A DNA stretch of 64,000 nt from NCBI GenBank assembly GCA_028714635.1, contig JAQTLZ010000002.1:121841-185840 (forward strand), in the 5' to 3' direction. The notes beneath the pieces were generated by a model. The model saw only the letters and a program-made list of their open reading frames with translations, was not told the DNA's origin and made no database searches. The translations under genes were made by a program, and so were the position numbers. Every line of letters starts with the position of its first letter. Within the stretch, counting starts at the first letter, position 1. This DNA is from Minisyncoccota bacterium (lineage in GTDB: Bacteria; Patescibacteriota; Minisyncoccia; Phycocordibacterales; JAQTLZ01). This document shows, in pieces, positions 7,772 through 62,924 of the stretch.

Positions 7772-7872
7772 AAAAACAGCTGAAACTAAACTGTTATCTT
7801 GTCGTGTTATACTAAGGGCCGTTCTGTCCTTTTTGCTGTTTGGCCTCGGAATCTCTCTTGAAAGGAGGGGTT

Positions 7873-8958
7873 GTGAAGAATAAAAGTGTCACACACCCTT
7901 CGGAAAGGGTGGTTTTGAAGCGTGTCGCTTCTGTTGTGCTTCATGTTTACGCTCTCATCATGCTTATTGCGGTGGGGCTTAGCATGCAAGCAGTGCTTTC
8001 CGCTGTTTCAGCGTATCTTTTCATAAGATGCGTTATCGTCATCGTCCAGTTCGAGCGTGAAATAAGAAGAACTGACGAGGGCAAGGAGCGCAAGCATTTG
8101 AAAAAAGGAGACCGGGCAAAGCTCGCTCCCATTAACTGGGTGCGCAGTATCGGTTTCTTTAGCGTACACGTCGTCGGAATTGCAGGGCCTTTTGTGGTTG
8201 GCTGGAGTTGGTGGGCGACAGGCCTTGCGGTCTTTCTCTACTACCTCCGGATGTTTTTCATCACCGGTTTTTACCATCGGTATTTTAGCCACAAAAGTTT
8301 CAAGTCATCTCGTCGATTCGTTTGTATTATGGCGCTCTGCGGGGCAAGCGCTCTTCAGAGGTCCGCCACTTGGTGGGCAGCGGTGCATCGATGGCATCAT
8401 GCTCATTCGGATCAAGATGAGTCAGACAGGCACTCTCCAGTCGTTTGGAATATATTTGAGACGCATTTCGGCTGGCTCAACAGAAAGGGCGCAAAAATAT
8501 TCAAGCCTCTTTCTGATGAGTTCATGCAGGACCCAGTCTTTGTGAAAAGTCAGAAGTATCCATGGGTGTATCTCCCGGCCGTCATTATGGCCCTGGGGTG
8601 TTACATCTTGGGCGTGGTCCTTTCACACTGGTTCTATGATGTGAGCGGTGGGCAATTGCTTATCGCGTTCTTCACAAGCACGACAGCTCTCTATCACGGC
8701 ACAGCCTTTGTGAACTCTATCACGCACATGATGGGCGAACGGTCTCATGATACGAAGGACAACAGCGGAGATGTGTGGTGGCTCGTACTCTTCGTTCTCG
8801 GAGAGTGGAAGCATAATAAGCATCATCACGATCCGAGTGCCGCAAAAGAGAGTGAATGCGATCCGACCTATTGGGGGCTCCTTGTCCTCGAAAGGCTGGG
8901 GCTCATTTGGGATTTGATCCCGGAAAAGGAGGAAAGAGATAAGTTAAGGGCTGCTTGA
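7873..8958 (+). CDS. Membrane fatty-acid desaturase (acyl-CoA delta-9 desaturase-like)
   Basis: Three His boxes: HRYFSH, HRWHHAHSD, HNKHHHD. AAAGGAGGGG RBS before GTG 7873; the ORF track lists an alternative upstream start at 7840. Confidence 0.85.
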   Translation: MKNKSVTHPSERVVLKRVASVVLHVYALIMLIAVGLSMQAVLSAVSAYLFIRCVIVIVQFEREIRRTDEGKERKHLKKGDRAKLAPINWVRSIGFFSVHVVGIAGPFVVGWSWWATGLAVFLYYLRMFFITGFYHRYFSHKSFKSSRRFVCIMALCGASALQRSATWWAAVHRWHHAHSDQDESDRHSPVVWNIFETHFGWLNRKGAKIFKPLSDEFMQDPVFVKSQKYPWVYLPAVIMALGCYILGVVLSHWFYDVSGGQLLIAFFTSTTALYHGTAFVNSITHMMGERSHDTKDNSGDVWWLVLFVLGEWKHNKHHHDPSAAKESECDPTYWGLLVLERLGLIWDLIPEKEERDKLRAA

Positions 8959-9014
8959 AAAAGCGCCCTTTTTTCATTCTCTTTATGATATTCTAAATGC
9001 ATATTTTCATTACT

Positions 9015-9632
9015 ATGCCGGAGAAGAAAAAGAAAAAATCGAAACATATCCACGTCAAAGATGTCTATTTTGCGGATATGGGCGGGAAGATGAAAAAGGG
9101 ATTTGGACGCTCTCTCGTTAGGAAAATTTTTCATCGGCCTGTTTTTAAGCGCGAAATTCATCACAAGACTTTCTCGGCAGATTTTAGCGCTACAAAACTT
9201 CGTTGGTACTCCAATCTTTTGAATATGTTCTACTTGAAGCTCGATGGTACCGCTTCCTGTTTTTTTACCGATGAAGGAACGCTCGTGATTATTTTCATGG
9301 TTTGGGGAGATCCCGATGCGGAAGAATTTTTCGAAATGCCGGAGATGAAAGGTGAATTTGTGGAGGATAGGGAAGCGACCCAGAAGAAAAAGAAAAAGAG
9401 TTTGAAGGTGGATAAGGATTCAGTGAAGGAGGAAGTGAAAGATGACGGGTATCACCTTCAATATGAAGAGACGTATAAAGATCACGGAAAAGAAGTGAGA
9501 ATGTTTGAGCATGTGATTTATTCCGGAATTGATAAGCTGGTTTTCCGGGCGATTGTCCCACCGAAAGTTTTGCCGGAGACTCTTGATGATATTTTGGCGA
9601 TTGCAAAGTCGCTTAGAATAAAGGTAACTTAA
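9015..9632 (+). CDS. Hypothetical Lys-rich protein
   Basis: 205-aa ORF with no recognisable motif. Alternative start at 8997. Followed by a strong terminator. Confidence 0.55.
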   Translation: MPEKKKKKSKHIHVKDVYFADMGGKMKKGFGRSLVRKIFHRPVFKREIHHKTFSADFSATKLRWYSNLLNMFYLKLDGTASCFFTDEGTLVIIFMVWGDPDAEEFFEMPEMKGEFVEDREATQKKKKKSLKVDKDSVKEEVKDDGYHLQYEETYKDHGKEVRMFEHVIYSGIDKLVFRAIVPPKVLPETLDDILAIAKSLRIKVT

Positions 9633-9646
9633 TAAAAGACAGAGAA

Positions 9647-9689
9647 GCCCTGCCCGACGAAGTCGGGCAGGGCTGTTGCGTTTTTTTTT
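9647..9689 (+). terminator. Intrinsic terminator
   Basis: GCCCTGCCCGAC-GAA-GTCGGGCAGGGC 12-bp stem followed by T9. Confidence 0.85.
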
Positions 9690-9770
9690 CGTAACGAGTA
9701 GGGTAAAGAGCGGAAGGTAACGGCGAAAACCTTTAATTTCGCTACTGTTTTTTGTGGGAGGGCTAGTAAT

Positions 9771-10526
9771 ATGTCGCCTGTGAATAGTGATAGGGCATAC
9801 GTGCCAATTTACTTGGCACTGGACAAGAAGGACTGGGAGCAAGCATCTCCGCTCCTTCGCACGCTCGGCAATCGCATTGATGGAGTCAAGATCCATCGCA
9901 TCTGGGATGAGCTTGGCGCGAAATCTGTTTCGATGATTCGCGACCTTGGTGTCCCTGATGCCTGGGTTGATCTCAAGCTTTTTGATACGCCGGACACCGC
10001 GGCCGAACGCGCCGAACAGGTCAAGAAAGCTGGCGCCAAAATTTTGACCGTACACGCCAAGGGCGAAGTCGAAATGATGATGGCTGCGGTCAAGAACGGT
10101 CCGGAACTGGTTCTCGCCATCACGGAACTTACTTCGCTTACGGCGGAGCAGGTGGAAGTGGGCGGTGGCCTCACGCCTAAATCGGCCGTGCTTCATTGGG
10201 CGCGTGTTGCCAAGCTGGGGACTGTTGGTGGAGTCGTTACTTCCGCACTGGAAGTGGGCATGCTCTCGAAACGACCGGAACTCAAGGGTTTCGTTCTGGC
10301 TGTCCCGGGCACGCGCTCTGCGGGCGTGGACGTCAACGACCAGAAGCGTTCGGATACGCCTTACAACGCGGTGCTTGCGGGCGCAGGACTTATCGTCGCT
10401 GGTCGGCAGGTGACTGCCGCGGAAGACCCCGTTACCGCTATCGAAGCGCTTCGGGAAGAAGTCAACAAGGCGAGTGATGAGCGGCTTCGTCTCTTGCAGG
10501 AGATGGGAAAGAAGAAAGTCGCGTAA
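9771..10526 (+). CDS. pyrF: Orotidine 5'-phosphate decarboxylase
   Basis: IYLALD motif; DLKLFDTPDT matches the OMPDC DLKxHDIPNT signature; ILTVHAKGEVEMM matches VNVHASGGARMM. GGGAGGG RBS. GC-rich (~58%). Confidence 0.8.
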   Translation: MSPVNSDRAYVPIYLALDKKDWEQASPLLRTLGNRIDGVKIHRIWDELGAKSVSMIRDLGVPDAWVDLKLFDTPDTAAERAEQVKKAGAKILTVHAKGEVEMMMAAVKNGPELVLAITELTSLTAEQVEVGGGLTPKSAVLHWARVAKLGTVGGVVTSALEVGMLSKRPELKGFVLAVPGTRSAGVDVNDQKRSDTPYNAVLAGAGLIVAGRQVTAAEDPVTAIEALREEVNKASDERLRLLQEMGKKKVA

Positions 10527-10555
10527 CAACCCGGCTCACCCCGCCCATCGGCATT

Positions 10556-11431
10556 GTGCCGACGGGCGGGAAAGCCGAAGACAGAAGACAAAGAAAGGAG
10601 AGTACCTTGCATAAGGACCAAATAAGTCAGACGGCGACGTCTCTGATCCATTTCGATCGAGACACGCCTGTGCTGGAAATCCTCCGTCTCTGTGGTGGAG
10701 TCTACCTCTGCCCTAAGGATGCGGCGGGGAAACGTGTCGGCCCGCTCGTTGGGTACGCTGGAAAAAGCCCGCGCCTGAAGACTAATCTCGTGGGGGATAT
10801 CTACGCGAATTTCTCCACGGCCGAGCGCTACTGGCACGTCATGGCTGAGTTCGCGCGGCGTCTCGTCGAGAACCCGAGATTCCAGGAGATTCTTCCGAGA
10901 CTGGACGGTCTCTGTGGGATGCCCATGGGCGGGATTACATATTCGTCGCACCTTGCGCGAGCATGTGATCGTACGGGGATCTTTCTGGAAAAGCTGGTCA
11001 CCGCGGTGGCGAACCCGATCGAGGGGACGAAGGAAGAGTCCATTCTGGTGGCCGGTCGCTGCGAGATTATCCTTGGAGCCAACTACGCGATCGTCGAGGA
11101 CGTTACCAATAACTTTTCCACCACGCTGAAAGCGATCGGTCTGATCGAAAAAGCTGGCGGAAAGGTCATTGCCATCTGCAGTATCCTGAACCGTTCACCG
11201 AAGCATACGTCTGACTTTCCGCTTCCGGACGGTCGGGAAATTCCGGTCATCTCGGCTTACCAAGAGCCGTTCCCGGAATTTGAGACGGATGACGAGGCCG
11301 TTGCGGCGGACATTGCCGCTGGAAACGTGATCTGGAAGCCAAAGGAAAATTGGCCCAAGCTCATGACCGCGATGGATGCTGCGCGTGAGACGGCGCTAGC
11401 GAATCAGTCGGACAAGCCGTCCGGTTCGTAA
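10556..11431 (+). CDS. Phosphoribosyltransferase-like protein with degenerate PRPP motif (possible divergent OPRT)
   Basis: Type I PRTase pattern: ...GGITYSS... then YAIVEDVTNNFSTT in place of VLIVDDVxTTGGT. GC-rich. True start uncertain (10556 to ~10604). Confidence 0.6.
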   Translation: MPTGGKAEDRRQRKESTLHKDQISQTATSLIHFDRDTPVLEILRLCGGVYLCPKDAAGKRVGPLVGYAGKSPRLKTNLVGDIYANFSTAERYWHVMAEFARRLVENPRFQEILPRLDGLCGMPMGGITYSSHLARACDRTGIFLEKLVTAVANPIEGTKEESILVAGRCEIILGANYAIVEDVTNNFSTTLKAIGLIEKAGGKVIAICSILNRSPKHTSDFPLPDGREIPVISAYQEPFPEFETDDEAVAADIAAGNVIWKPKENWPKLMTAMDAARETALANQSDKPSGS

Positions 11432-11459
11432 GTTGTATTCGAATCAATTGTTTCTTAGT

Positions 11460-11494
11460 GCAGAGTCGCTCGCCCGGACTCTGCGCTTTTTTAT
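11460..11494 (+). terminator. Intrinsic terminator
   Basis: GCAGAGTC-GCTCGCCCG-GACTCTGC hairpin followed by GCTTTTTTATTT. Confidence 0.7.
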
Positions 11495-11522
11495 TTGTCT
11501 GAATTTTGTTACAGTTGCCAGC

Positions 11523-12434
11523 ATGAAATCAGAACTCATGAGTTTCCACACGAAAGACAAGCTTGAATTGCCGGGGCTTTTATATGAACCAGCACGAAAG
11601 AGTAATAAAGTAGCCATATTTCTTCATGGAAACGGCAATGGATCTGTTTTTAATAATCCTGTTTTGCAAAATACTATTGGTGACGCGCTGACGAAAAAGG
11701 GTATTGCTTATTTCCCATTCAACAATCGCGGGTCTGGGTATATCAGGAGTTTCAAAAAAATGGTGGACGGAAAGAAAGTCCGCCGGAATCTTGGCATGGC
11801 ATTTGAGCTTATTAAGGATTGTGTGATTGATATAGATGCCGCGCTTGCGGCCCTGCGCAAGCGCGGCTACTCCGAATTCTACTTACTCGGTGTTTCGACG
11901 GGAGCGAACAAAATCTGCGTCTACAACTACTACAAACCGAAAAATATTTTCTCAAAATTTATTTTACTCGCTCCAGGCGACGATGTCGGCGGGTATCTCG
12001 ATATGTGGGGTCCGCAGAAATTCGGCGCAATGCTTAAGATGTCGAAAGATAAGATCAAAGCAGGGAAGGGCGACGAGCTTGTTCCGCAAAATCTTTCCAG
12101 CTACAACTTTATTTCATTTAAATCTCTGTATGACATGATCAATCCCGATGGGAACTACAATGTTTTTCCGTATTTTGAAGTTTTGCATAATCTCGACCTA
12201 ACGAAAAAGAAAAAAATTTGGCGAGAATACCGGAGTCTCAAAAAACCAACCCTTGTTCTTATGCCAGGAAGGGACGAGTATTGTTATGGAAAGATAAAAG
12301 AAGTAGTGAAAATGCTCAAAGGAAATGGCAGCGCCACGAATTTCAATTTCAAAATTCTTCCCGGCTCATTGCACGGATTCTGGAAAAAAGAAAAAGAATT
12401 GGCAAAAATTCTCGCAGATTGGATTTTTGGGTAA
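11523..12434 (+). CDS. Alpha/beta-fold hydrolase
   Basis: GVSTG nucleophile elbow (GxSxG), HGNGNG oxyanion-region motif. ATG 11523 (MKSELMSF) chosen because the upstream listed ATG 11433 lies before the 11460-11494 terminator. Confidence 0.8.
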   Translation: MKSELMSFHTKDKLELPGLLYEPARKSNKVAIFLHGNGNGSVFNNPVLQNTIGDALTKKGIAYFPFNNRGSGYIRSFKKMVDGKKVRRNLGMAFELIKDCVIDIDAALAALRKRGYSEFYLLGVSTGANKICVYNYYKPKNIFSKFILLAPGDDVGGYLDMWGPQKFGAMLKMSKDKIKAGKGDELVPQNLSSYNFISFKSLYDMINPDGNYNVFPYFEVLHNLDLTKKKKIWREYRSLKKPTLVLMPGRDEYCYGKIKEVVKMLKGNGSATNFNFKILPGSLHGFWKKEKELAKILADWIFG

Positions 12435-12441
12435 AAATAAA

Positions 12442-12481
12442 GCGCGCATAAACATCTGGGAACGTAAGGTGCGCGCTTTTT
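12442..12481 (+). terminator. Putative terminator (long loop)
   Basis: AGCGCGCA ... TGCGCGCT 8-bp stem, 19-nt loop, then TTTTT. Confidence 0.4.
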
Positions 12482-12613
12482 CGGAGTTGTGGCCGCGGGG
12501 GCCTCTCGTCCGGTCATAATACGACTGCAAGCTGATCGAGTGGGACTCGATGGGTCTTGCATTTCTATAAAGTACGAAGTCGCGGCGCTCGTAGCTGGGC
12601 TGCTGTGGGTCAT

Positions 12614-13174
12614 TCAGGCCAGAACGACTTGACCGCGGCGGGCCGTCTCGATTGAGATCGGCTCGCACCTTTGCGTCGGCGCGTCTTCAGGCAACCTCGC
12701 ACAGGTGTCTTCCGGGGGCATCGGGATCGTCTCCACCTTGTAATTCTGGTGGAAGACCACCGATTTAGGCTGAATGATCGTGTCGTCGTCGATGGTGATT
12801 GTCGTCTTCGTGGCCGTGACCGACAACTTCGCATTTACGATCGAGATGAGGACCCAATGGAACTCTGCACCCTGTGGCATGAGAGCGATCCCTCGCTTCA
12901 TGATGGCGTCCAGTTCGGCGTGGAAGCTGGACTTTGCCACGATGAAGACCGGTGGCAACTCCTTCGGCTGAACGGCATTGGACGGCTGATGCGGGTTCCA
13001 GTGTGCGATTTCAACCTGGCACATCCTCGCTTCAGCGGGGACCGTTTCTCCGGCTGCGACCCGAATAGGATCCAGGGTGATGCTTCCCCCTGCACCGACG
13101 CCGATGTGGCGCTCTCCGAGCTTCTTTTGCAGCACTACTGCTTGCTGCGATACGGCTAACGATCGTTCCCGCAT
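12614..13174 (-). CDS. Hypothetical protein in a GC-rich island
   Basis: Minus-strand ORF more protein-like than the Arg-rich + frame. ATG (MRERSLAV) preceded by GAAAGG; the ORF track extends to a TTG at 13201. No family recognised. Confidence 0.4.
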   Translation of the reverse strand: MRERSLAVSQQAVVLQKKLGERHIGVGAGGSITLDPIRVAAGETVPAEARMCQVEIAHWNPHQPSNAVQPKELPPVFIVAKSSFHAELDAIMKRGIALMPQGAEFHWVLISIVNAKLSVTATKTTITIDDDTIIQPKSVVFHQNYKVETIPMPPEDTCARLPEDAPTQRCEPISIETARRGQVVLA

Positions 13175-13301
13175 AACTGCCTGCCTTTCTCCCCATGTCA
13201 AGCATGAGGTACTGTAATCTCCCCGTATCGACGGGGCAAACTTCTCTCATAATTCTATCTTTTTATCTCGCCTCACGCTATAGTAGGGGAAATAAATTTT
13301 T

Positions 13302-55759: not shown

Positions 55760-56617
55760 ATGGAAGAAAAAAACAATAGTAATTCAAATAACCGAAGTTA
55801 CGATTCTTCACCCAGGAATGAAGAAAATAAGGGATTTTCGGGTAATGAGATTAAAACGCAAGATGGGCACTTTGATTTCTTGTCTCAGAAGTCTCAAAGA
55901 CTTTCCACTGCCCTTTATATGCTCACTAACCTTTTTGAGCAAAACGACCCTCTTCGTTTCAAGCTCCGGGAGATGGCCGTAAAGCTCGTATCGGACACAA
56001 TGTGTCTCATACATTTATCAATAAAAGAAAGAGATCAGAAAATAAAAACAACATATTTTCTCGCGACAGAGATACTCTCTCTGTGCGAGATTGGTTATGC
56101 ATCCGGAATGATGTCGGAGATGAATCACCTCATCTTGAAGAAGGAATTTGGGCTTTTTACAGAGACTTTGCAGTCGAAAAGAGTTCGAAAAGATGAAGAA
56201 AATACTTTCACTATTCCAAGCAATTTTTTCAGCGTGAATGAAATATCGGACAATCATTCCGGGACGCTTCTGAAAGGAGGCAGTTTCGAAAAGGATATAA
56301 TCAAGAATCTTTCCACGGGAGACAAAAGACCCCTCTTGGGTTATAAAGGACATTATAAAAGACATATAGATGTAAAAGACAATAATGTCCTTTATAAAGA
56401 CATCCAAAGGACAGCGCCTGCTGTTGATAGAAGAGAAATGATATTAAAGGCTTTTAGAGATAGAAAAGAAGGCTCGTTGACCATAAAAGACATTGGGGAG
56501 GTTATAAAGGACTGCAGCGAAAAAACTATTCAGAGACAGCTCATTGATATGGTTAAGAATGGTGTCCTAGAGAAACATGGCGAAAGACGATGGAGTTCTT
56601 ATTCTATTAAGAAATAG
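55760..56617 (+). CDS. Hypothetical protein with C-terminal winged-helix-like DNA-binding domain
   Basis: 285-aa ORF, Asn/Ser-rich N-terminus. The C-terminus (TIKDIGEVIKDCSEKTIQRQLIDMVKNGVLEKHGERRWSSYSI) resembles a wHTH. Confidence 0.55.
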   Translation: MEEKNNSNSNNRSYDSSPRNEENKGFSGNEIKTQDGHFDFLSQKSQRLSTALYMLTNLFEQNDPLRFKLREMAVKLVSDTMCLIHLSIKERDQKIKTTYFLATEILSLCEIGYASGMMSEMNHLILKKEFGLFTETLQSKRVRKDEENTFTIPSNFFSVNEISDNHSGTLLKGGSFEKDIIKNLSTGDKRPLLGYKGHYKRHIDVKDNNVLYKDIQRTAPAVDRREMILKAFRDRKEGSLTIKDIGEVIKDCSEKTIQRQLIDMVKNGVLEKHGERRWSSYSIKK

Positions 56618-57399
56618 GATAGCTTAGAATAAACATCTTGATTGCGCGCTCCCTACCATACATGTTCAAAAGTGATCTTGGTCACAATTTACTCTGTTCT
56701 ACGTCATTAAGGGTAGTCATACCCTATTTGGATTGACTTTAAGCCCCTAAATGAGTAGAATCATTGAATGTTGAAATACAACAAAAAAAGGGCCACATAA
56801 GGCCATTTTGGCGTTTTTCAACAATCCTTCTACGGGTGGTTTAATAAGGTCTTATTTTGGGGAAACTGCAGAAATCAGTTATCCACATAAGCCTTATTTT
56901 ACAGCTACGATATGGGGATATATAATTGAGCGGTGAGATAATTTCGCATTCAATTTGCGCAATTTATCCGGATACTGTTCTGTTATATTTGTCCGAGAGA
57001 ACGAAACAGATCATTGACATTTTCATAGAGAGTCCTATTTACAGAATTCCTTATTCTTCCACTCTTTCTATATGAAAGAGGGACACGACATGTTTACGGT
57101 AAGTATTTCAGACCAAAATTCGTTAACTACTTTTTTCATCTTGTGTCGATATATGAGATGGGGAAAATAGTGTAGTTAGAGAGAGTGCTTTGCAAGAAAT
57201 TGCAAAGTTACATATTGAATCATTATCGTTTCCGCATTGAAAAATGTTGAGACGAGATTGATTAAAAGCGCAAATGCATTTTTAGTTCTTAAGTCGAGAC
57301 TGAAATGTGTTTCGCACATTACGCAATCAGGAATAATTTTTTTCTTCATTCATTATTAATAATCTGAAGAGAAAGGTATTTCCAAAAAATTAATAAAAT

Positions 57400-59343
57400 A
57401 TGAATTATAAAACAAAGAGAGTAGTTGCAGGAGTTCTCGGTTTGGCAATGGCAGTCTCAATGGTTGCTGCTGCTGGAGGAGCTCTTACAGCTTTGGCTTC
57501 GTTCGACGTAAACCTTACTGTCGGCTCAACAGGAGCAGATGTAACGGCACTTCAAAACTGGCTTATTGAGAACGGATTTCTCAGTATCCCAGCTGCGACT
57601 GGCTACTTCGGTCCTTTGACCCAATCAGCAGTTGCTGCTTATCAGACAAGTGTTGGTATTACACCAGCAGCTGGTTATGTAGGTCCAATCACTCGAGCTA
57701 AGCTCAACGCGGGCGGTTCAGTTTCTGGAAACTTCCCAGCAGGTTGTACAAGCGCTTCAGGTTACAGCAGTGTAACAGGATTGCCTTGCGCACCGATTGG
57801 TTTCCCAGCAGGATGTACTTCAGCTTCAGGATTTAGTTCAACAACTGGACAGCCATGTTCGGGTGGTGGATCTTTCCCAGCAGGATGTACTTCAGCTTCA
57901 GGATTTAGCACAACAACCGGAATGTCATGTTCTGGCGGTTCATCAGGAGGTGGTTCACTTTCTGGTGGCGCAGGTGAAATAACAGTAACTGCTAAGACAG
58001 CTGGTACAGAAACCACTGTTGGCGAAGGAAAAGAGGAAAAGGTCCTCGGTATGGAGATAGAGGCTGATGATAACTCTGATGCTGAAATCACTTCTATGCG
58101 ACTTATCGCTACTGTTGACACCGATGGAGCAACAAGATTCAACCGATATGTTGACGAAGTAAAGGTATATATGGGAAGCAAAGAGGTAGGTTCATTGGAT
58201 TCATCTGATTTCTCACGAGATGCAGCTGAATTCACTGGAACCATTTCTCTCCATGGTGCCGTCGTACAGAAAGGCGAGAAAGTTCGATTCTATGTCGCTT
58301 TTGTCGCTAACAACATTATTGATTCTGATGATCTAGACAATACGATCAATCTCGTCGTAAGTCGAATCCGATTTACTGACGCTACAGGAGCAATCCTCAC
58401 AAATGAGGACATTGATACTGATGATGTGACCGTATCTTTCGAAGACGCAACAGAAAGTGATGGAGCAAAGGTGCAATCAGACTCTTCTACACCTGATGCA
58501 CAGATTTTGAAAGTTGAAGATAATAGTAGTTCAGAAGAATACCATATCTTCTCATTCAAGATTAAGTCAGACTCAGGCGCATCTGATATGGAGGTCACAT
58601 CGCTTCCTATCAACCTCTCAATCTACAACGCATCTACTACAGCTATCAACACGGAAGACTTGATTGATGATATGTATGTGATGATTGGTGGAAAGAAGTA
58701 TGATGATTACACATTCGACAACACAAGTATTGCTACAGCTAGTACAGAGACCGCTATAGCTACCTTCACCATAGACGAAGGAGATCTAACAGTTGACGGT
58801 GGTACTACTGAGCAAGCTAAGGTGTACGTCAAATTCGGTAGACAAGAAGACAAATACGCTGCTGCTGATACAACAGTTACAGCTTCTGTCGTCGGTTCTA
58901 CTATTGACGCAGAAAACTCTAACGGTGATACCATTGACTTGACTGGTACTGTCACTGGAAAGACAATGACAGCTGCTATTTCTGCTGCTGAAGTCACAGA
59001 CTTCACTTGGGCAGTAGGAACTGGCGGAACATACATAGACTTCTTCTTCACAGTAACAGCTGGCGATGAAGACTTCGATGTTCTTACAGCAAGCATTGCT
59101 TCTTCTACATCTGGTAATGCAACAACATCTTCTGGAACTCTCACAAAGAGCTCTGGCGATGATGTAACTAGCATTTCAGGAGGATTCACTGTCGCTTCTG
59201 GAGATACAACAACGTTCAAAGTTAGATACTTGGTAACAGGTTCTAACGGAACAATCTCAACAGTAACGATTACTTCTGTGGCTGGACAAGAGGTACCTGA
59301 CAACAAACAGGAATCTCCTACAGCAACAAGAAACGTTTACTAA
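57400..59343 (+). CDS. Cell-surface protein: signal peptide + PG_binding_1-like domain + three Cys-containing 20-aa repeats + Thr/Ser/Asp-rich beta region (S-layer-like candidate)
   Basis: Signal peptide. GSTGADVTALQNWLIENGF...GYFGPLTQSAVAAYQ resembles a peptidoglycan-binding domain. Three FPAGCTSASG(F/Y)S..TG.(P/S)C repeats. Translationally efficient codon choice (GCT/ACT/GGT/GAC). Two tandem terminators follow. Confidence 0.9.
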   Translation: MNYKTKRVVAGVLGLAMAVSMVAAAGGALTALASFDVNLTVGSTGADVTALQNWLIENGFLSIPAATGYFGPLTQSAVAAYQTSVGITPAAGYVGPITRAKLNAGGSVSGNFPAGCTSASGYSSVTGLPCAPIGFPAGCTSASGFSSTTGQPCSGGGSFPAGCTSASGFSTTTGMSCSGGSSGGGSLSGGAGEITVTAKTAGTETTVGEGKEEKVLGMEIEADDNSDAEITSMRLIATVDTDGATRFNRYVDEVKVYMGSKEVGSLDSSDFSRDAAEFTGTISLHGAVVQKGEKVRFYVAFVANNIIDSDDLDNTINLVVSRIRFTDATGAILTNEDIDTDDVTVSFEDATESDGAKVQSDSSTPDAQILKVEDNSSSEEYHIFSFKIKSDSGASDMEVTSLPINLSIYNASTTAINTEDLIDDMYVMIGGKKYDDYTFDNTSIATASTETAIATFTIDEGDLTVDGGTTEQAKVYVKFGRQEDKYAAADTTVTASVVGSTIDAENSNGDTIDLTGTVTGKTMTAAISAAEVTDFTWAVGTGGTYIDFFFTVTAGDEDFDVLTASIASSTSGNATTSSGTLTKSSGDDVTSISGGFTVASGDTTTFKVRYLVTGSNGTISTVTITSVAGQEVPDNKQESPTATRNVY

Positions 59344-59387
59344 TCTCTTGTGACTTATTGGGCCCAAAAGCCTAATGAGATGATTAC

Positions 59388-59420
59388 AAAACCGCCCTTC
59401 GGGGCGGTTTTGTTTTGTCT
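59388..59420 (+). terminator. Intrinsic terminator 1 after the surface-protein gene
   Basis: AACCGCCC-TTCG-GGGCGGTT followed by TTGTTTTG. Confidence 0.8.
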
Positions 59421-59453
59421 GGTTTCTCATATAAAGTTGGAAAGGCCTTAAAA

Positions 59454-59488
59454 GCCCCGCCGAGCTTGCTCTCGGCGGGGCTTTTTTG
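59454..59488 (+). terminator. Intrinsic terminator 2 (tandem)
   Basis: GCCCCGCCGAG-CTTGCT-CTCGGCGGGGC followed by T6. Confidence 0.85.
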
Positions 59489-59526
59489 TGGATGTTTTCT
59501 TCCGAGATGGATGGTACACTATTCGT

Positions 59527-59685
59527 ATGTGGAAATACTTCGATAAGACCTTTTTTAAGTTTCTGATAGGTTTTTTGGTCATTCTGACCGCCAGTTTTCT
59601 CCTCCTCATTTTCACCAACGCCTATAAGATAAAAATCGAAGCGCAATCCCAATTCGCCAATCCTCCTTTAGTGCAAGATCAATGA
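59527..59685 (+). CDS. Small hydrophobic protein (52 aa), translationally coupled to the downstream gene
   Basis: Stop TGA overlaps ATG 59682 (ATGA). One TM helix (FKFLIGFLVILTASFLLLIF). The ORF track lists this as 59488..59685 from an ATG inside the terminator T-run; ATG 59527 preferred. Confidence 0.35.
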   Translation: MWKYFDKTFFKFLIGFLVILTASFLLLIFTNAYKIKIEAQSQFANPPLVQDQ

Positions 59686-62600
59686 GACGGCGAGGGTTAC
59701 AAATTTTTCTCCTCATTTTTTCTTCTCTCTGCATTTTCAATATAAACTCTGTAAAAGCGGAGACCGTCATCACCGATTCAGAAATTTCTGTCGATACCAC
59801 ATGGACAAAAGTAAATAGCCCCTATATTATTTCAGGCGATTTGATTATCGATTCAGGCGTGACTCTCACAATTGAACCAGGAGTTATTGTGAAAATGGAA
59901 AACAGCGCTTTGTATGTAGATGGGAAAATCGTCGCGGAAGGCACTGAAAACGAGAAGATATACTTCACCTCGTTTGCAGACGATTCTCTCGGAGGAGACA
60001 CGAATGGCGACGGTGCTCTCACGACACCATCGGAATTCGATTACGACGGCATCAGGTTGTGGGGAAGCGACCCTGGATCACATTTCTCTCATGCAGTTTT
60101 CCAGTATGCTTCAATAGCTCTCGATTTCGATACCACTACTGCCACACTGGATGCTGTCTCCATCGAGCATGGCAATGGAGGAATCTCTGCCTTTAATGCA
60201 GATATTTCTCTTAAAAATTCTCATCTTTTCGATCTTTCATTTGATGCAGTTGATGGATATGGCGCGAGTAAGATACTCGTTGCTTCAAGCATTATCGAAG
60301 ATCTTCAGGGCTCTGCTTTTGGCATGTATAACGACTCGATGCTCATACTCAAAGACTCGACGATAAAAAATCTTCAAGATGGAACTGGTGTGATCTTATT
60401 CGATTCTTTTGCGGATATTCAAGATTCGACTTTTGAAAATATTACTCGGGATGCGGTGGGTGTCTACAATTCGAAGCTTACTTTCAAGGATTCTTCAGCC
60501 AAAGATAATGATTGGGGTTCTGCAATTTATGCGCAAGGCACAAGCGATGTCACCATTTCAGGAAGTTCATTCGACGGCGGTTTCAATTCGGGCGTTGAAT
60601 TTTATGGAAACAGCTGGAGCGGACAACATTCTTCTTTTTCTGTATCAAACTCGACTTTTCAAAATTATCTTTATGCCGGAATAAGTGCGGGGGATATTGT
60701 TTCCGGGAGTATCGCTTCAAGCACAATTCAGAAAAATTTTATCGGTCTTGATGTGTGGAATATCCCGTTGCTCATAAGCGGAAGTGCAATAAAAGAGAAT
60801 GATCTTCTGGGACTTTGGAATGAATCGGATGAAAAAGTAGTTGATGCAAAAAATAACTGGTGGGGAGATGTAGGAGGCCCGTACGAAGAAGTTGGGAATC
60901 CGCTTGGATTTGGAAATGAGGTAATGGGAGCTGTTAATTACACGCCATGGCTTAGCGAAGATCCATTTTTAGTAATAGAGCCGGAGTGCTGTTCAAGCGT
61001 TGCATTTTTGCCGGGAATCGAGGGAAGTAGGTTGTATAAGCAGGGCCTGATTTTTGAAGACCAGCTTTGGGAGCCGAATTACTATAGCGATGTAGAGGCT
61101 CTTCATTTAGATGCAAATGGAAAAAGCAAAGACCCTTCGGTTTACACAAAGGACGTTATTGATAGTGTAAATATTGCGGGTACAAAAATTTACCGAAGTT
61201 TCATGGATGAGATGGATGGTTTGAAAACCGCAGGCACAATATCAGATTGGGAACCGCTTCCGTATGATTGGCGGCTTTCCGCGGATGATACGGTGGCGAA
61301 TCCTGTGAAGCTCGCAGGCGGGGGTACATATTCGATGGTTGCCCAAATTGAAAATCTGGCGGCAAATTCGAAAACGGGGAAAGTCACGCTCATCGCGCAC
61401 AGTATGGGAGGAATTGTAAGCAAAGCGCTTATCAAAGCACTTGAGGCAAAAGGGGAGGCGGGACTTATCGATAAGTTAATTCTGGTCGCCTCTCCGCAGA
61501 TCGGTACGCCACAGACAATTGGTTCGCTTCTGCACGGATACGGAGAAGAACTTTTCCACGGACTTCTGGCGGGCGCAGCCACAATGCGAACATTTGGCGA
61601 GAATCTTTCCGGAGCGTATCAGCTTTTGCCTTCTGCAGAATATTTTACAAAAGTGTCGGATCCGGTTGTTACATTTGATCCATCAATCGATACCGTTTCA
61701 GATTTCAGACAAAAATATGGAGAAAGTATTTCCACCAAAGCAGGACTTCAGAATTTTCTTCTTGGAGCAGATGGCAGAGCAAAACCATCGGCAGAAGATA
61801 TTACCTTGCCGAATATTTTGAATTCTACAATTCTCACAAATGTAAATACACTTCATGACAATATCGATTCATACCAAATTCCGTCGGACATTGCAGTAAC
61901 GCAAATTGCCGGTTGGGGATTGGATACGATAAAAGGAATTAAATATCAGACGAAAGATGTAACAGTCTGCGCCGATAAAGGAGCCTGTCAGACGAATAAA
62001 GAATTGGACATGCGACCAATCTTTACGGAAGATGGAGATGGGACGGTGGTGGTGCCAAGTGCGGCGAAGTTGAATACGAGTAAATATTTTTTTGATTTTC
62101 CCCTCTATAACTCGCAATTTAATATATCTCTTGAACATAAGAACATTCTCGAGTCTTCTGTAATTCTCGATTTTCTAAAAAACAAAATTATCGAAGCGAC
62201 AAGTTCTGCTGATTTCATTACTTCCACAGAACCAGATCCAGTTGATCTTGGCAAACAGATTCGTCTTTCTGGTCACTCGCCGATTTCACTAGATCTCTAT
62301 GATAGCGACGGTCATCACACGGGCCTTATCTCTATTCCTAATTCAGATTTTAATTACGCAGAAGAACAAATTCCGAATAGTTATTATTTTGAACTTGGCG
62401 ATGGGAAGTATGTAGGATTCCCAGATGATAATTCCACAAATGTAAAAATATCTGGCACTGGTATTGGAACTTTTACCCTCGATATTGAACGAGTGGTAGG
62501 AGGCCAGACAACCACAACTTCTTCATACGCGGATATTCCCGTTTTCCCAACAACGCAAGCCTCTCTTCTCGTATCTGCGACTTCCACCACGCTTTCACTA

Positions 62601-62924
62601 GATCTCGATGGGAATGGTGCAGTGGATTTCAATCTAGCTCCGACGCAAGAGCTTGATTCAATCGCGTATTTCAAAGTAATGAAGAATATCATTGCTTCTC
62701 TCAACTTATCTCCTGGCGTTACCAAGCCTCTTCTTGCTAAAATTGATAATGCGATAAAGATGCTTCAGAAAAGCAAGGTGTCAAATGTCCAGAAAAGAAT
62801 TTCTAGTATGTTGCATCAGATAGAAATAAAAAATAAAAAGAAAGTGAATAAAAAAATTGATTCTATCGACGCACAATTCTTGGTTACTATGCTTACTAAT
62901 TTATTAGATAATCTCCCAAAATAA
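59682..62924 (+). CDS. Secreted multidomain protein: N-terminal right-handed beta-helix repeats + C-terminal alpha/beta-hydrolase (LCAT/PGAP1-like lipase/esterase) domain
   Basis: Signal peptide. ~430 aa of parallel beta-helix-type repeats (Gly/Asp/Ser/Asn-rich, repeated 'S.F.' rungs). Lipase-like region with LIAHSMGGIV (GxSxG) and LVASPQIGTPQ. Confidence 0.9.
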   Translation: MRRRGLQIFLLIFSSLCIFNINSVKAETVITDSEISVDTTWTKVNSPYIISGDLIIDSGVTLTIEPGVIVKMENSALYVDGKIVAEGTENEKIYFTSFADDSLGGDTNGDGALTTPSEFDYDGIRLWGSDPGSHFSHAVFQYASIALDFDTTTATLDAVSIEHGNGGISAFNADISLKNSHLFDLSFDAVDGYGASKILVASSIIEDLQGSAFGMYNDSMLILKDSTIKNLQDGTGVILFDSFADIQDSTFENITRDAVGVYNSKLTFKDSSAKDNDWGSAIYAQGTSDVTISGSSFDGGFNSGVEFYGNSWSGQHSSFSVSNSTFQNYLYAGISAGDIVSGSIASSTIQKNFIGLDVWNIPLLISGSAIKENDLLGLWNESDEKVVDAKNNWWGDVGGPYEEVGNPLGFGNEVMGAVNYTPWLSEDPFLVIEPECCSSVAFLPGIEGSRLYKQGLIFEDQLWEPNYYSDVEALHLDANGKSKDPSVYTKDVIDSVNIAGTKIYRSFMDEMDGLKTAGTISDWEPLPYDWRLSADDTVANPVKLAGGGTYSMVAQIENLAANSKTGKVTLIAHSMGGIVSKALIKALEAKGEAGLIDKLILVASPQIGTPQTIGSLLHGYGEELFHGLLAGAATMRTFGENLSGAYQLLPSAEYFTKVSDPVVTFDPSIDTVSDFRQKYGESISTKAGLQNFLLGADGRAKPSAEDITLPNILNSTILTNVNTLHDNIDSYQIPSDIAVTQIAGWGLDTIKGIKYQTKDVTVCADKGACQTNKELDMRPIFTEDGDGTVVVPSAAKLNTSKYFFDFPLYNSQFNISLEHKNILESSVILDFLKNKIIEATSSADFITSTEPDPVDLGKQIRLSGHSPISLDLYDSDGHHTGLISIPNSDFNYAEEQIPNSYYFELGDGKYVGFPDDNSTNVKISGTGIGTFTLDIERVVGGQTTTTSSYADIPVFPTTQASLLVSATSTTLSLDLDGNGAVDFNLAPTQELDSIAYFKVMKNIIASLNLSPGVTKPLLAKIDNAIKMLQKSKVSNVQKRISSMLHQIEIKNKKKVNKKIDSIDAQFLVTMLTNLLDNLPK

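Follow-up and report, generated by a model that had tools for sequence, protein, structure and literature searches.

A candidate peptidoglycan-anchored S-layer gene of Paceibacteria with a hairpin-bearing leader in a conserved gene neighbourhood

Surface layers (S-layers) on cells of the candidate phyla radiation (CPR), the Patescibacteria, have been known since 2015, and no subunit has been proven experimentally. The closest described systems come from a preprint (10.1101/2024.05.28.596244), which predicts that Patescibacteria proteins with three immunoglobulin (Ig)-like domains assemble into p6 hexagonal pyramids with a 13.5-nm cell, in agreement with a 13-nm lattice seen by cryo-electron microscopy (cryo-EM) on unidentified Patescibacteria. 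The three-Ig members given there are GMX57981.1 of Yanofskybacteria (692 aa), UMX47672.1 of Nealsonbacteria DGGOD1a (727 aa) and A0A1G2QP48 of Vogelbacteria (643 aa). The main S-layer family of Patescibacteria in the same source has six Ig domains, as in A0A1G2EN61 of Nealsonbacteria (1131 aa), with a predicted spacing of 18.5 nm and a likeness drawn to the Haloferax volcanii S-layer glycoprotein. Here we describe a gene for a 647-aa protein of the three-Ig build, found in a 64,000-nucleotide stretch (the window) of contig JAQTLZ010000002.1 from a Paceibacteria genome, together with its leader, its neighbours and its relatives.

Proteins with a peptidoglycan (PG)-binding domain were among the top five expressed signal-peptide genes of three Paceibacteria in a metatranscriptome (PMC10936435), one of them being encoded by the Yanofskyibacterium gene PMX_810_sub_00350 (2079 nt = 692 aa, SignalP 0.998). 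A PG-binding domain is also present in two of the six-Ig proteins, both of them highly expressed (PMC10936435; 10.1101/2024.05.28.596244), and Nealsonbacteria with three PG-binding proteins in the genome showed an apparent S-layer in cryo-EM (10.1101/2022.04.20.488981). The Lactobacillus slpA gene has biased codons, two promoters and a long structured 5' untranslated region (UTR) that confers mRNA stability (PMC3666127), and an 'SLH' RNA motif precedes S-layer-homology (SLH) genes in Firmicutes and Synergistetes (PMC6429828).

The 647-aa protein is identical to MDD5356959.1, labelled 'peptidoglycan-binding domain-containing protein' by NCBI and derived from a 195-kb contig of a Candidatus Pacebacteria metagenome-assembled genome (MAG). 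We consider it probable that the gene encodes a PG-anchored S-layer subunit, the major surface protein of this Paceibacteria (CPR) cell, and very likely that its product is at minimum a highly abundant surface protein anchored in the wall. The choice between an S-layer protein and an abundant wall-anchored adhesin is not settled. An S-layer role has already been proposed for similarly built proteins in the preprint, so the window protein would add to a predicted, experimentally unproven kind.

The initial annotation, made by a model from the letters of the DNA, had described a protein of 647 aa with a signal peptide, a peptidoglycan-binding-like domain, three near-identical 20-aa repeats with two Cys each and ~450 aa of Thr/Ser/Asp/Val-rich beta-type sequence, and our analysis bore out this outline. 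The open reading frame (ORF) and the N-terminal features agreed: in the N-terminus (MNYKTKRVVAGVLGLAMAVSMVAAAGGALTALA, followed by SF) a basic n-region precedes a hydrophobic core and an A-x-A site, so that it reads as a Sec signal peptide with predicted cleavage between ALA and SF. An AlphaFold2 (AF2) model made from a 53-sequence family alignment gave a predicted local distance difference test (pLDDT) score <50 at aa 1-29. PG_binding_1 (PF01471) was the sole Pfam match (E=2.7e-12, 47 bits vs a cut-off of 23), and with a score above the gathering threshold and a three-helix fold the segment belongs to this family. Three Cys-pair repeats are present (aa 112-131, 135-154 and 159-178, pattern FPAGC-x4-G[YF]S-x-(V/T)TG-x2-C), but the first has diverged more than the second and third; Tandem Repeats Finder on the DNA covered repeats 2-3 (period 72 nt, 1.9 copies, 88% matches), and the pLDDT of the repeats was just 60-74. 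The beta region measures ~460 aa and is more exactly described as three beta-sandwich domains of Ig type, with a pLDDT >90 at aa 190-647 and a mean of 87.3 for the whole model.

Composition follows the same line. The C-terminal ~460 aa contain 14.7% T, 10.4% S, 10.4% D, 9.1% A and 8.7% V at a pI of 4.05, and the Ig region holds 0 Cys, 7 Met and 2 His. The mature protein has a mass of 63 kDa and a pI of 4.07, and its Cys residues are confined to the repeats. These values lie within the range of S-layer proteins (40-200 kDa, weakly acidic, sulphur-poor, rich in hydroxy, acidic and hydrophobic residues), for which an acidic pI and a Cys-poor composition are typical (PMC4232325). The protein also unites the two general properties of this class, secretion (a signal-peptide-like N-terminus by sequence) and an envelope anchor (PG_binding_1). 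By AF2 and Pfam it has the whole three-Ig architecture, namely a signal peptide, a wall anchor, three Ig-like domains and a length in the ~640-730 aa range. It is like the published three-Ig candidates in phylum and class, length (647 aa), signal peptide, three Ig-like domains and indications of very high expression, and it shares the PG-binding domain with the Yanofskyibacterium protein (PMC10936435). The six-Ig proteins likewise consist of a chain of Ig-like domains with predicted hexagonal pyramids, but have double the number of domains and a predicted spacing of 18.5 rather than 13.5 nm; none was found in the 64-kb window.

PG_binding_1 is typical of wall hydrolases, and a peptidoglycan hydrolase or wall-remodelling enzyme would match source annotations such as 'peptidoglycan hydrolase-like protein' (Joint Genome Institute names) and the only NCBIfam match, SleB. 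That match scored 29.6 bits, below the cut-off of 236.5, and was restricted to aa 36-107. The hydrolases of this class (SleB, amidases, lytic transglycosylases) carry a catalytic domain adjoining PG_binding_1; none was found anywhere in the 647 aa by Pfam, NCBIfam, the AF2 model or Foldseek, and we reject an enzymatic role as scarcely credible.

A Foldseek comparison of the AF2 model with the PDB retrieved proteins with Ig-like domains in tandem and of a generic kind, among them PrgB (8beg, E=9e-13), the legs of integrin alpha and the C-domains of antigen I/II (AgI/II). The best structural matches are tandem-Ig Gram-positive adhesins (PrgB, AgI/II, Cnm), and no solved S-layer protein was among them. 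An abundant wall-anchored adhesin or fibrillar coat for host attachment, with no crystalline lattice, is the main alternative, and it would also suit the hypervariable exposed domains described below, as an adaptation to hosts, and the two family copies of some genomes. The resemblance lies in the tandem beta-sandwiches (PrgB 8beg and the antigen I/II C-domains 4ofq and 3opu, E 9e-13 to 1e-6), at an identity of 10-12% and a template modelling (TM) score of ~0.15. The C-terminus (...QEVPDNKQESPTATRNVY) has no LPXTG motif, hydrophobic tail or membrane anchor on inspection, so that the LPXTG, hydrophobic segment and charged tail of sortase-anchored adhesins (MSCRAMM or AgI/II type) are absent; with no LPXTG or sortase signal, the anchoring of the window protein would be N-terminal and non-covalent. 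A fixed syntenic position in very divergent Paceibacteria, together with extreme codon bias, fits a structural housekeeping coat better than a specialised adhesin. Archaea lack murein. The authors of the metatranscriptome study proposed host attachment for the PG-binding-domain proteins, but the hosts that it reports are archaea (PMC10936435), and for that reason the PG-binding domain is more plausibly a self-anchor. A lattice is moreover predicted for proteins of the same build (10.1101/2024.05.28.596244). We thus regard a pure adhesin as rather unlikely, although adhesion and S-layer formation are not mutually exclusive.

The codon usage of the gene argues for very high expression. We built an expression axis from the log-ratio of codon frequencies in seven translation-type genes (SecE, NusG, L11, S6, SSB, S18 and EF-P) vs 37 bulk genes of the window, and the surface gene scored 0.089 (z=4.3), whereas none of the 37 bulk genes exceeded the 0.024 of recA. 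Its effective number of codons (ENC, 41.6) was the window minimum, and its Kullback-Leibler (KL) distance from the bulk was 0.258 vs 0.033+-0.007 in simulations that kept the amino-acid sequence. Enriched codons vs the bulk were GCT (0.59 vs 0.24), GGT (0.40 vs 0.18), GAC (0.40 vs 0.26), AAG (0.57 vs 0.28), TTC (0.81 vs 0.37) and AAC (0.75 vs 0.27), and NCG and GGG codons were shunned. The statements of the initial annotation that usage differs from that of neighbouring genes and resembles that of highly expressed genes were thus supported, and its codon list (GCT, ACT, GGT, GAC, AAG) stood except for ACT, which was flat (0.30 vs 0.28), the preferred Thr codon being ACA (0.53 vs 0.26).

A low third-position GC content (GC3 0.31, the window minimum) could also point to recent horizontal acquisition instead of high expression, and an Ig region just 21-39% identical between near-identical genomes would suit replacement as a cassette. 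The direction of the bias, however, matches that of the window's translation genes, with NNC over NNT, CGA for Arg and avoidance of TCG/NCG. It also recurs across the family, in genomes of differing composition. In the 53 loci with enough neighbours (recA and EF-P among them), the ENC was under the neighbours' median in all 53, no neighbour had a lower one in 42, NNC exceeded NNT in 51, and NCG codons were fewer in 50. With a conserved syntenic site, leader and anchor as well, we consider horizontal acquisition very improbable as the source of the bias and reject it; relatives may have exchanged the exposed part, yet this leaves the direction of the bias unexplained.

The family is large. More than 1,000 relatives of 575-770 aa were found, the best 55% identical, and the named ones are all Patescibacteria. 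A profile search of 1.84 billion representatives gave at least 3,488 clusters at 50% identity with E<=1e-30, and a search of species-representative genomes from 13 close sequences gave 362 relatives, from which 80 loci were kept for synteny counts. A gene of the HTH285 type lies upstream in 68 of these 80 loci, with ftsK additionally in 62. The conserved order is EF-P, recA and ftsK on the minus strand, then HTH285, a long gap (median 550 bp in 63 loci) and the surface gene on the plus strand, and it persists where the surface protein is just 26-30% identical.

The Cys-pair motif (C-x4-G[YF]S-x-TTG-x2-C) is found in 83 of 245 family proteins, in 0-4 copies and always between the anchor and the Ig region; by this sequence pattern, therefore, it is an optional spacer module within the family, probably stapled by disulfides. 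It is occasionally present in other PG-binding proteins. Other proteins make use of the anchor module too, either as the PG-binding domain by itself or in combination with Cys repeats, as in L058 (2580-5774), L067 (8090-9010), OHA59317.1/OHA59318.1 of Vogelbacteria and A3G52_04330/A3G52_00335 of Taylorbacteria. The 1064-aa protein of L058 has only the anchor module in common with the window protein and may be of the six-Ig type. In some genomes the family gene is present twice, and in one from Vogelbacteria the locus tags of the two copies are adjacent, a situation reminiscent of lactobacilli with several slp genes.

Comparison with two close loci, L002 and L003, revealed a mosaic of divergence. 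L002 belongs to a near-identical genome: between it and the window RecA is 98%, FtsK 93% and HTH285 87% identical, and the signal peptide, PG-binding domain and Cys repeats reach 84-88%, vs 39% for Ig1, 21% for Ig2 and 31% for Ig3; the pattern in L003 is similar. Across L002 (5995-8094) and L003 (1399-3519) together, the signal peptide, PG-binding domain and repeats are 64-91% identical and the Ig domains 39-40%, 21-22% and 24-31%, in that order; the whole surface proteins of the three loci are 45-49% identical. A conserved anchor joined to a hypervariable exposed part suggests, on these alignments, diversifying selection or cassette exchange of the exposed domains, and this mosaic appears to be a new observation. 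Lactobacillus SlpA and Bacillus Sap/EA1 have the same two-part design of conserved anchor and variable assembly region and are likewise acidic and Cys-poor. The window anchor, PG_binding_1, is unlike their SLH, CWB2 or Lactobacillus C-terminal modules, and no sequence or specific fold similarity to SlpA or Sap/EA1 was detected by Pfam or Foldseek.

The leader 5' of the gene is more conserved than the protein that follows. Mean column identity among the window, L002 and L003 is 87%, vs 45-49% for the encoded proteins, and part of the leader recurs 5' of the family gene in distant loci (nhmmer: L027, L073, L042, L032 and L063). It contains no credible ORF. Rfam 15 gave nothing at E<=1 in the leader and, in the entire window, tRNA-His alone at the gathering score; its other matches were chance terminator-like ones. 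Candidate promoter P1 is conserved across the window, L002 and L003 and P2 is invariant in the same three; promoter-like sites are not in excess where the scan was made (9 vs 7.6 in shuffles). TTGACA was found in 35 of 63 upstream regions vs ~0.11 expected per region, and the box in the window has no good -10 at sigma-70 spacing on reading the sequence. A pairing of TTCAGAC with GTGTCGATA as sigma-70 -35 and -10 elements was ruled out by a constant start-to-start spacing of ~36 nt.

A recurring motif of these leaders, G[TA]GTCGATA, proved to be the loop of a hairpin whose stems differ among loci. In the window it is represented by HP1 (folding free energy (dG) -16.8, z -4.35), and 14 homologous hairpins with different stem sequences had z values of -3.4 to -6.7. 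A covariance model (R1) gave 24 matches in 953 kb searched on both strands; all lay on the sense strand 5' of a family gene, 70-560 nt upstream of it, and none elsewhere. In the R1 alignment 90.4% of cells were paired vs 71% in shuffles, with 49 vs 17 double-change cells, and the covariation score was 0.75 vs 0.37 shuffled (reached by 0/500) and 0.12-0.42 in slid controls; this alignment was fitted to the model and hence favours structure. We also applied a strict, model-free test (a terminal loop of <=12 nt that contains GUCGA and is closed by >=11 pairs, dG <= -14), which superseded a laxer first test that ~20% of background sites had passed. The strict test was passed in 40 of 63 upstream regions, and by ~45-47 of 84 upstream motif occurrences vs 80 of 1540 (5.2%) elsewhere. 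HP2 passes it as well, with equivalents in L002, L003, L063, L068 and L073.

The arms of the GUCGA hairpins vary yet stay complementary, 18% of their pairs are G.U, and in 40 of 45 cases folding favours the sense strand over the antisense by ~6.5 kcal/mol, a gap somewhat inflated by the use of sense-strand energy for selection; a DNA operator is ruled out by these three properties. A pseudoknot was rejected too, the UAUCG complement of the GUCGAUA loop being present downstream in just 10 of 21 loci and at inconsistent positions. L001, L045 and L076 have no GUCGA hairpin and carry an alternative double hairpin ~160-190 nt 5' of the family gene (...CUUGYYUCGGUWRGCAAGG GYUGYGGGGUACGUCCRCARCC) with compensatory changes; from these sequences, therefore, structured leaders seem general for the surface gene and clade-specific in form.

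HTH285 gave no Pfam match in the window, and 28 of 61 homologs have a C-terminal HTH_DeoR match. Its AF2 model shows a four-helix bundle at aa 34-139 (pLDDT ~97) that resembles Avd/S23-IVS, a disordered linker and a winged helix (winged helix-turn-helix, wHTH). Judged by synteny alone, HTH285 may be a regulator or RNA-binding partner of the surface gene. GUCGA-loop hairpins with such a neighbour appear not to have been described before, and we put forward, tentatively, that they are an undescribed family of cis-acting RNA, specific to the surface-layer gene of Paceibacteria, that forms, with the Avd-like/wHTH protein, a lineage-wide control module in which that protein, or a different factor, might recognise the loop. 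The SLH RNA motif resembles them as a conserved RNA structure in leaders of S-layer-type genes (PMC6429828), but it belongs to different taxa and the window leader, which matches no Rfam family, that motif included, has one or two simple long GUCGA-loop hairpins instead.

At its 3' end the gene is followed by two hairpins with U-runs, as the initial annotation had stated in calling them two consecutive strong terminators; the 59340-59500 segment folds at -71.2 kcal/mol (z=-7.3), a stability reached by 0/200 shuffles. The double terminator is not a family trait, since the gene ends in a single very strong terminator in L002 and in a weak one in L067. In Gram-positive S-layer genes, too, codon bias goes together with a long, structured 5' UTR, several promoters and strong termination (PMC3666127). 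Upstream, the last 40 nt before the ATG (~57365-57399 in the window, and in related loci) lack a Shine-Dalgarno sequence at the usual distance; ~22-30 nt 5' of the ATG there is instead a purine-rich block (GAGAAGG-like) with an A/U-rich stretch after it, an arrangement that recurs in many loci. The overall conclusion of the initial annotation, a major envelope protein, is thus matched by a concordant signal peptide, wall anchor, acidic beta region, codon bias and terminators, and the literature agrees.

Several points weigh against an S-layer subunit and were taken into account. Lattice formation by the window protein would follow from a published prediction on similar proteins, and the best Foldseek matches in the PDB are adhesins and integrin legs, with no solved S-layer protein. 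Kinship with the published three-Ig candidates is suggested by architecture, taxon and size alone: a homolog search seeded with a Vogelbacteria member, together with cluster look-ups, did not surface GMX57981.1, UMX47672.1 or A0A1G2QP48. The Vogelbacteria members that it recovered were A0A1G2QEF6, A0A1G2QG06 and A0A1G2QFP9, and two 643-aa matches, P0379 and P0411, bear no accession. The neighbours of PMX_810_sub_00350 are not ftsK, recA or an HTH gene, which places it outside the synteny of the window gene. The Cys-pair repeats, leader hairpins, wHTH neighbour and mosaic are features of the window family that go unmentioned for the published candidates in the portion of the sources available. 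The genome could carry a six-Ig protein outside the 64-kb window, which would make the window protein a second abundant wall protein. As to expression, the abundance of MDD5356959.1 is indicated by strong proxies from the sequence, the direct data being from other Paceibacteria, and the in-window reference for high expression is small, with 7 genes of which 3 encode ribosomal proteins.

Taking these points together, we still favour a PG-anchored S-layer subunit, which would work as follows. The precursor would be exported via Sec and cut after Ala33, and its N-terminal three-helix PG_binding_1 domain would hold the cell's own peptidoglycan non-covalently. The three Cys-pair modules and the Gly/Ser stretch may serve as a spacer through or above the wall, placing the three acidic Thr/Ser/Asp-rich Ig-like domains at the surface, where they could self-assemble into a 2D lattice as in the p6, 13.5-nm prediction. 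Very high output would come from one or more strong promoters, the long hairpin leader, the optimised codons and the tandem terminators, which may also shield the downstream gene; the likeliest role of the GUCGA hairpins is to stabilise the mRNA or to bind a factor. The exposed domains would evolve or be exchanged very fast while the anchor stays conserved. The features of the locus are collected in Table 1.

Table 1. Features of the surface-protein locus (positions in the window; aa, amino acids of the 647-aa protein; CDS, coding sequence).
Feature	Position	Strand	Remarks
HTH285	55760..56617	+	Avd-like four-helix bundle, disordered linker, C-terminal DeoR-type winged helix
Promoter/leader region, non-coding	56618..57399	+	782 bp; better conserved than the CDS 3' of it
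Candidate promoter P1, TTGACT-17-TAGAAT	56733..56761	+	consensus scan, 10/12 matches
Candidate promoter P2, TTTACA-17-TATAAT	56898..56926	+	consensus scan, 11/12 matches
TTGACA box, context gaaCgTTGACAAtt..ATAG	57007..57012	+	candidate -35 element or protein-binding site
Hairpin HP1	57126..57171	+	~20-bp stem; GUCGAUA loop 57145-57151; ~255 nt 5' of ATG
Hairpin HP2	57268..57315	+	GUCGA loop 57293-57297; ~107 nt 5' of ATG; dG -15.7
Surface-protein CDS	57400..59343	+	647 aa, MDD5356959.1
Predicted signal peptide, aa 1-33	57400..57498	+	sequence reading; cleavage ALA/SF
PG_binding_1 domain, aa 44-102	57529..57705	+	wall anchor; Pfam
Three Cys-pair repeats, aa 112-178	57733..57933	+	then Gly/Ser linker to ~aa 189
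Ig-like beta-sandwich domain 1, aa ~190-348	57967..58443	+	AF2 pLDDT >90
Ig-like beta-sandwich domain 2, aa ~355-526	58462..58977	+	AF2; most variable part
Ig-like beta-sandwich domain 3, aa ~530-647	58987..59340	+	AF2
Intrinsic terminator 1	59386..59420	+	hairpin 59386-59413, 12-bp stem, UUCG loop, U-run
Intrinsic terminator 2	59450..59490	+	hairpin 59450-59485, 15-bp stem, U-run

Downstream of the surface gene, window positions 59682-62924 encode a secreted protein of 1080 aa that combines a right-handed beta-helix with a lipase-type alpha/beta-hydrolase domain similar to LCAT/PGAP1. A gene of this kind adjoins the surface gene on its 3' side in 21 of the 80 loci; the protein is fast-evolving, with 66% identity in L002, and could act on host membranes. 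At ~7800-13200 the window has an island of higher GC content (up to 0.54 vs ~0.44 for the window) that is not rRNA and may be foreign DNA; its genes include a fatty-acid desaturase, an orotidine monophosphate decarboxylase, an S33-type hydrolase and several high-GC3 ORFs that overlap one another and match no family.

The locus offers a clean and complete example of the leading three-Ig candidate family, and would exemplify S-layer anchoring through PG_binding_1 instead of SLH-type modules. The order recA-ftsK-wHTH-leader-gene gives a fixed address at which the gene can be found in Paceibacteria MAGs. The mosaic suggests that phages, hosts or predators exert strong diversifying pressure, and the hypervariable exposed domains are a possible strain marker. 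The structured leader with its candidate regulator provides a first handle on gene regulation in almost unculturable organisms; if the proposed control module is real, it would govern the most abundant protein of the cell at the level of transcription, mRNA stability or translation.

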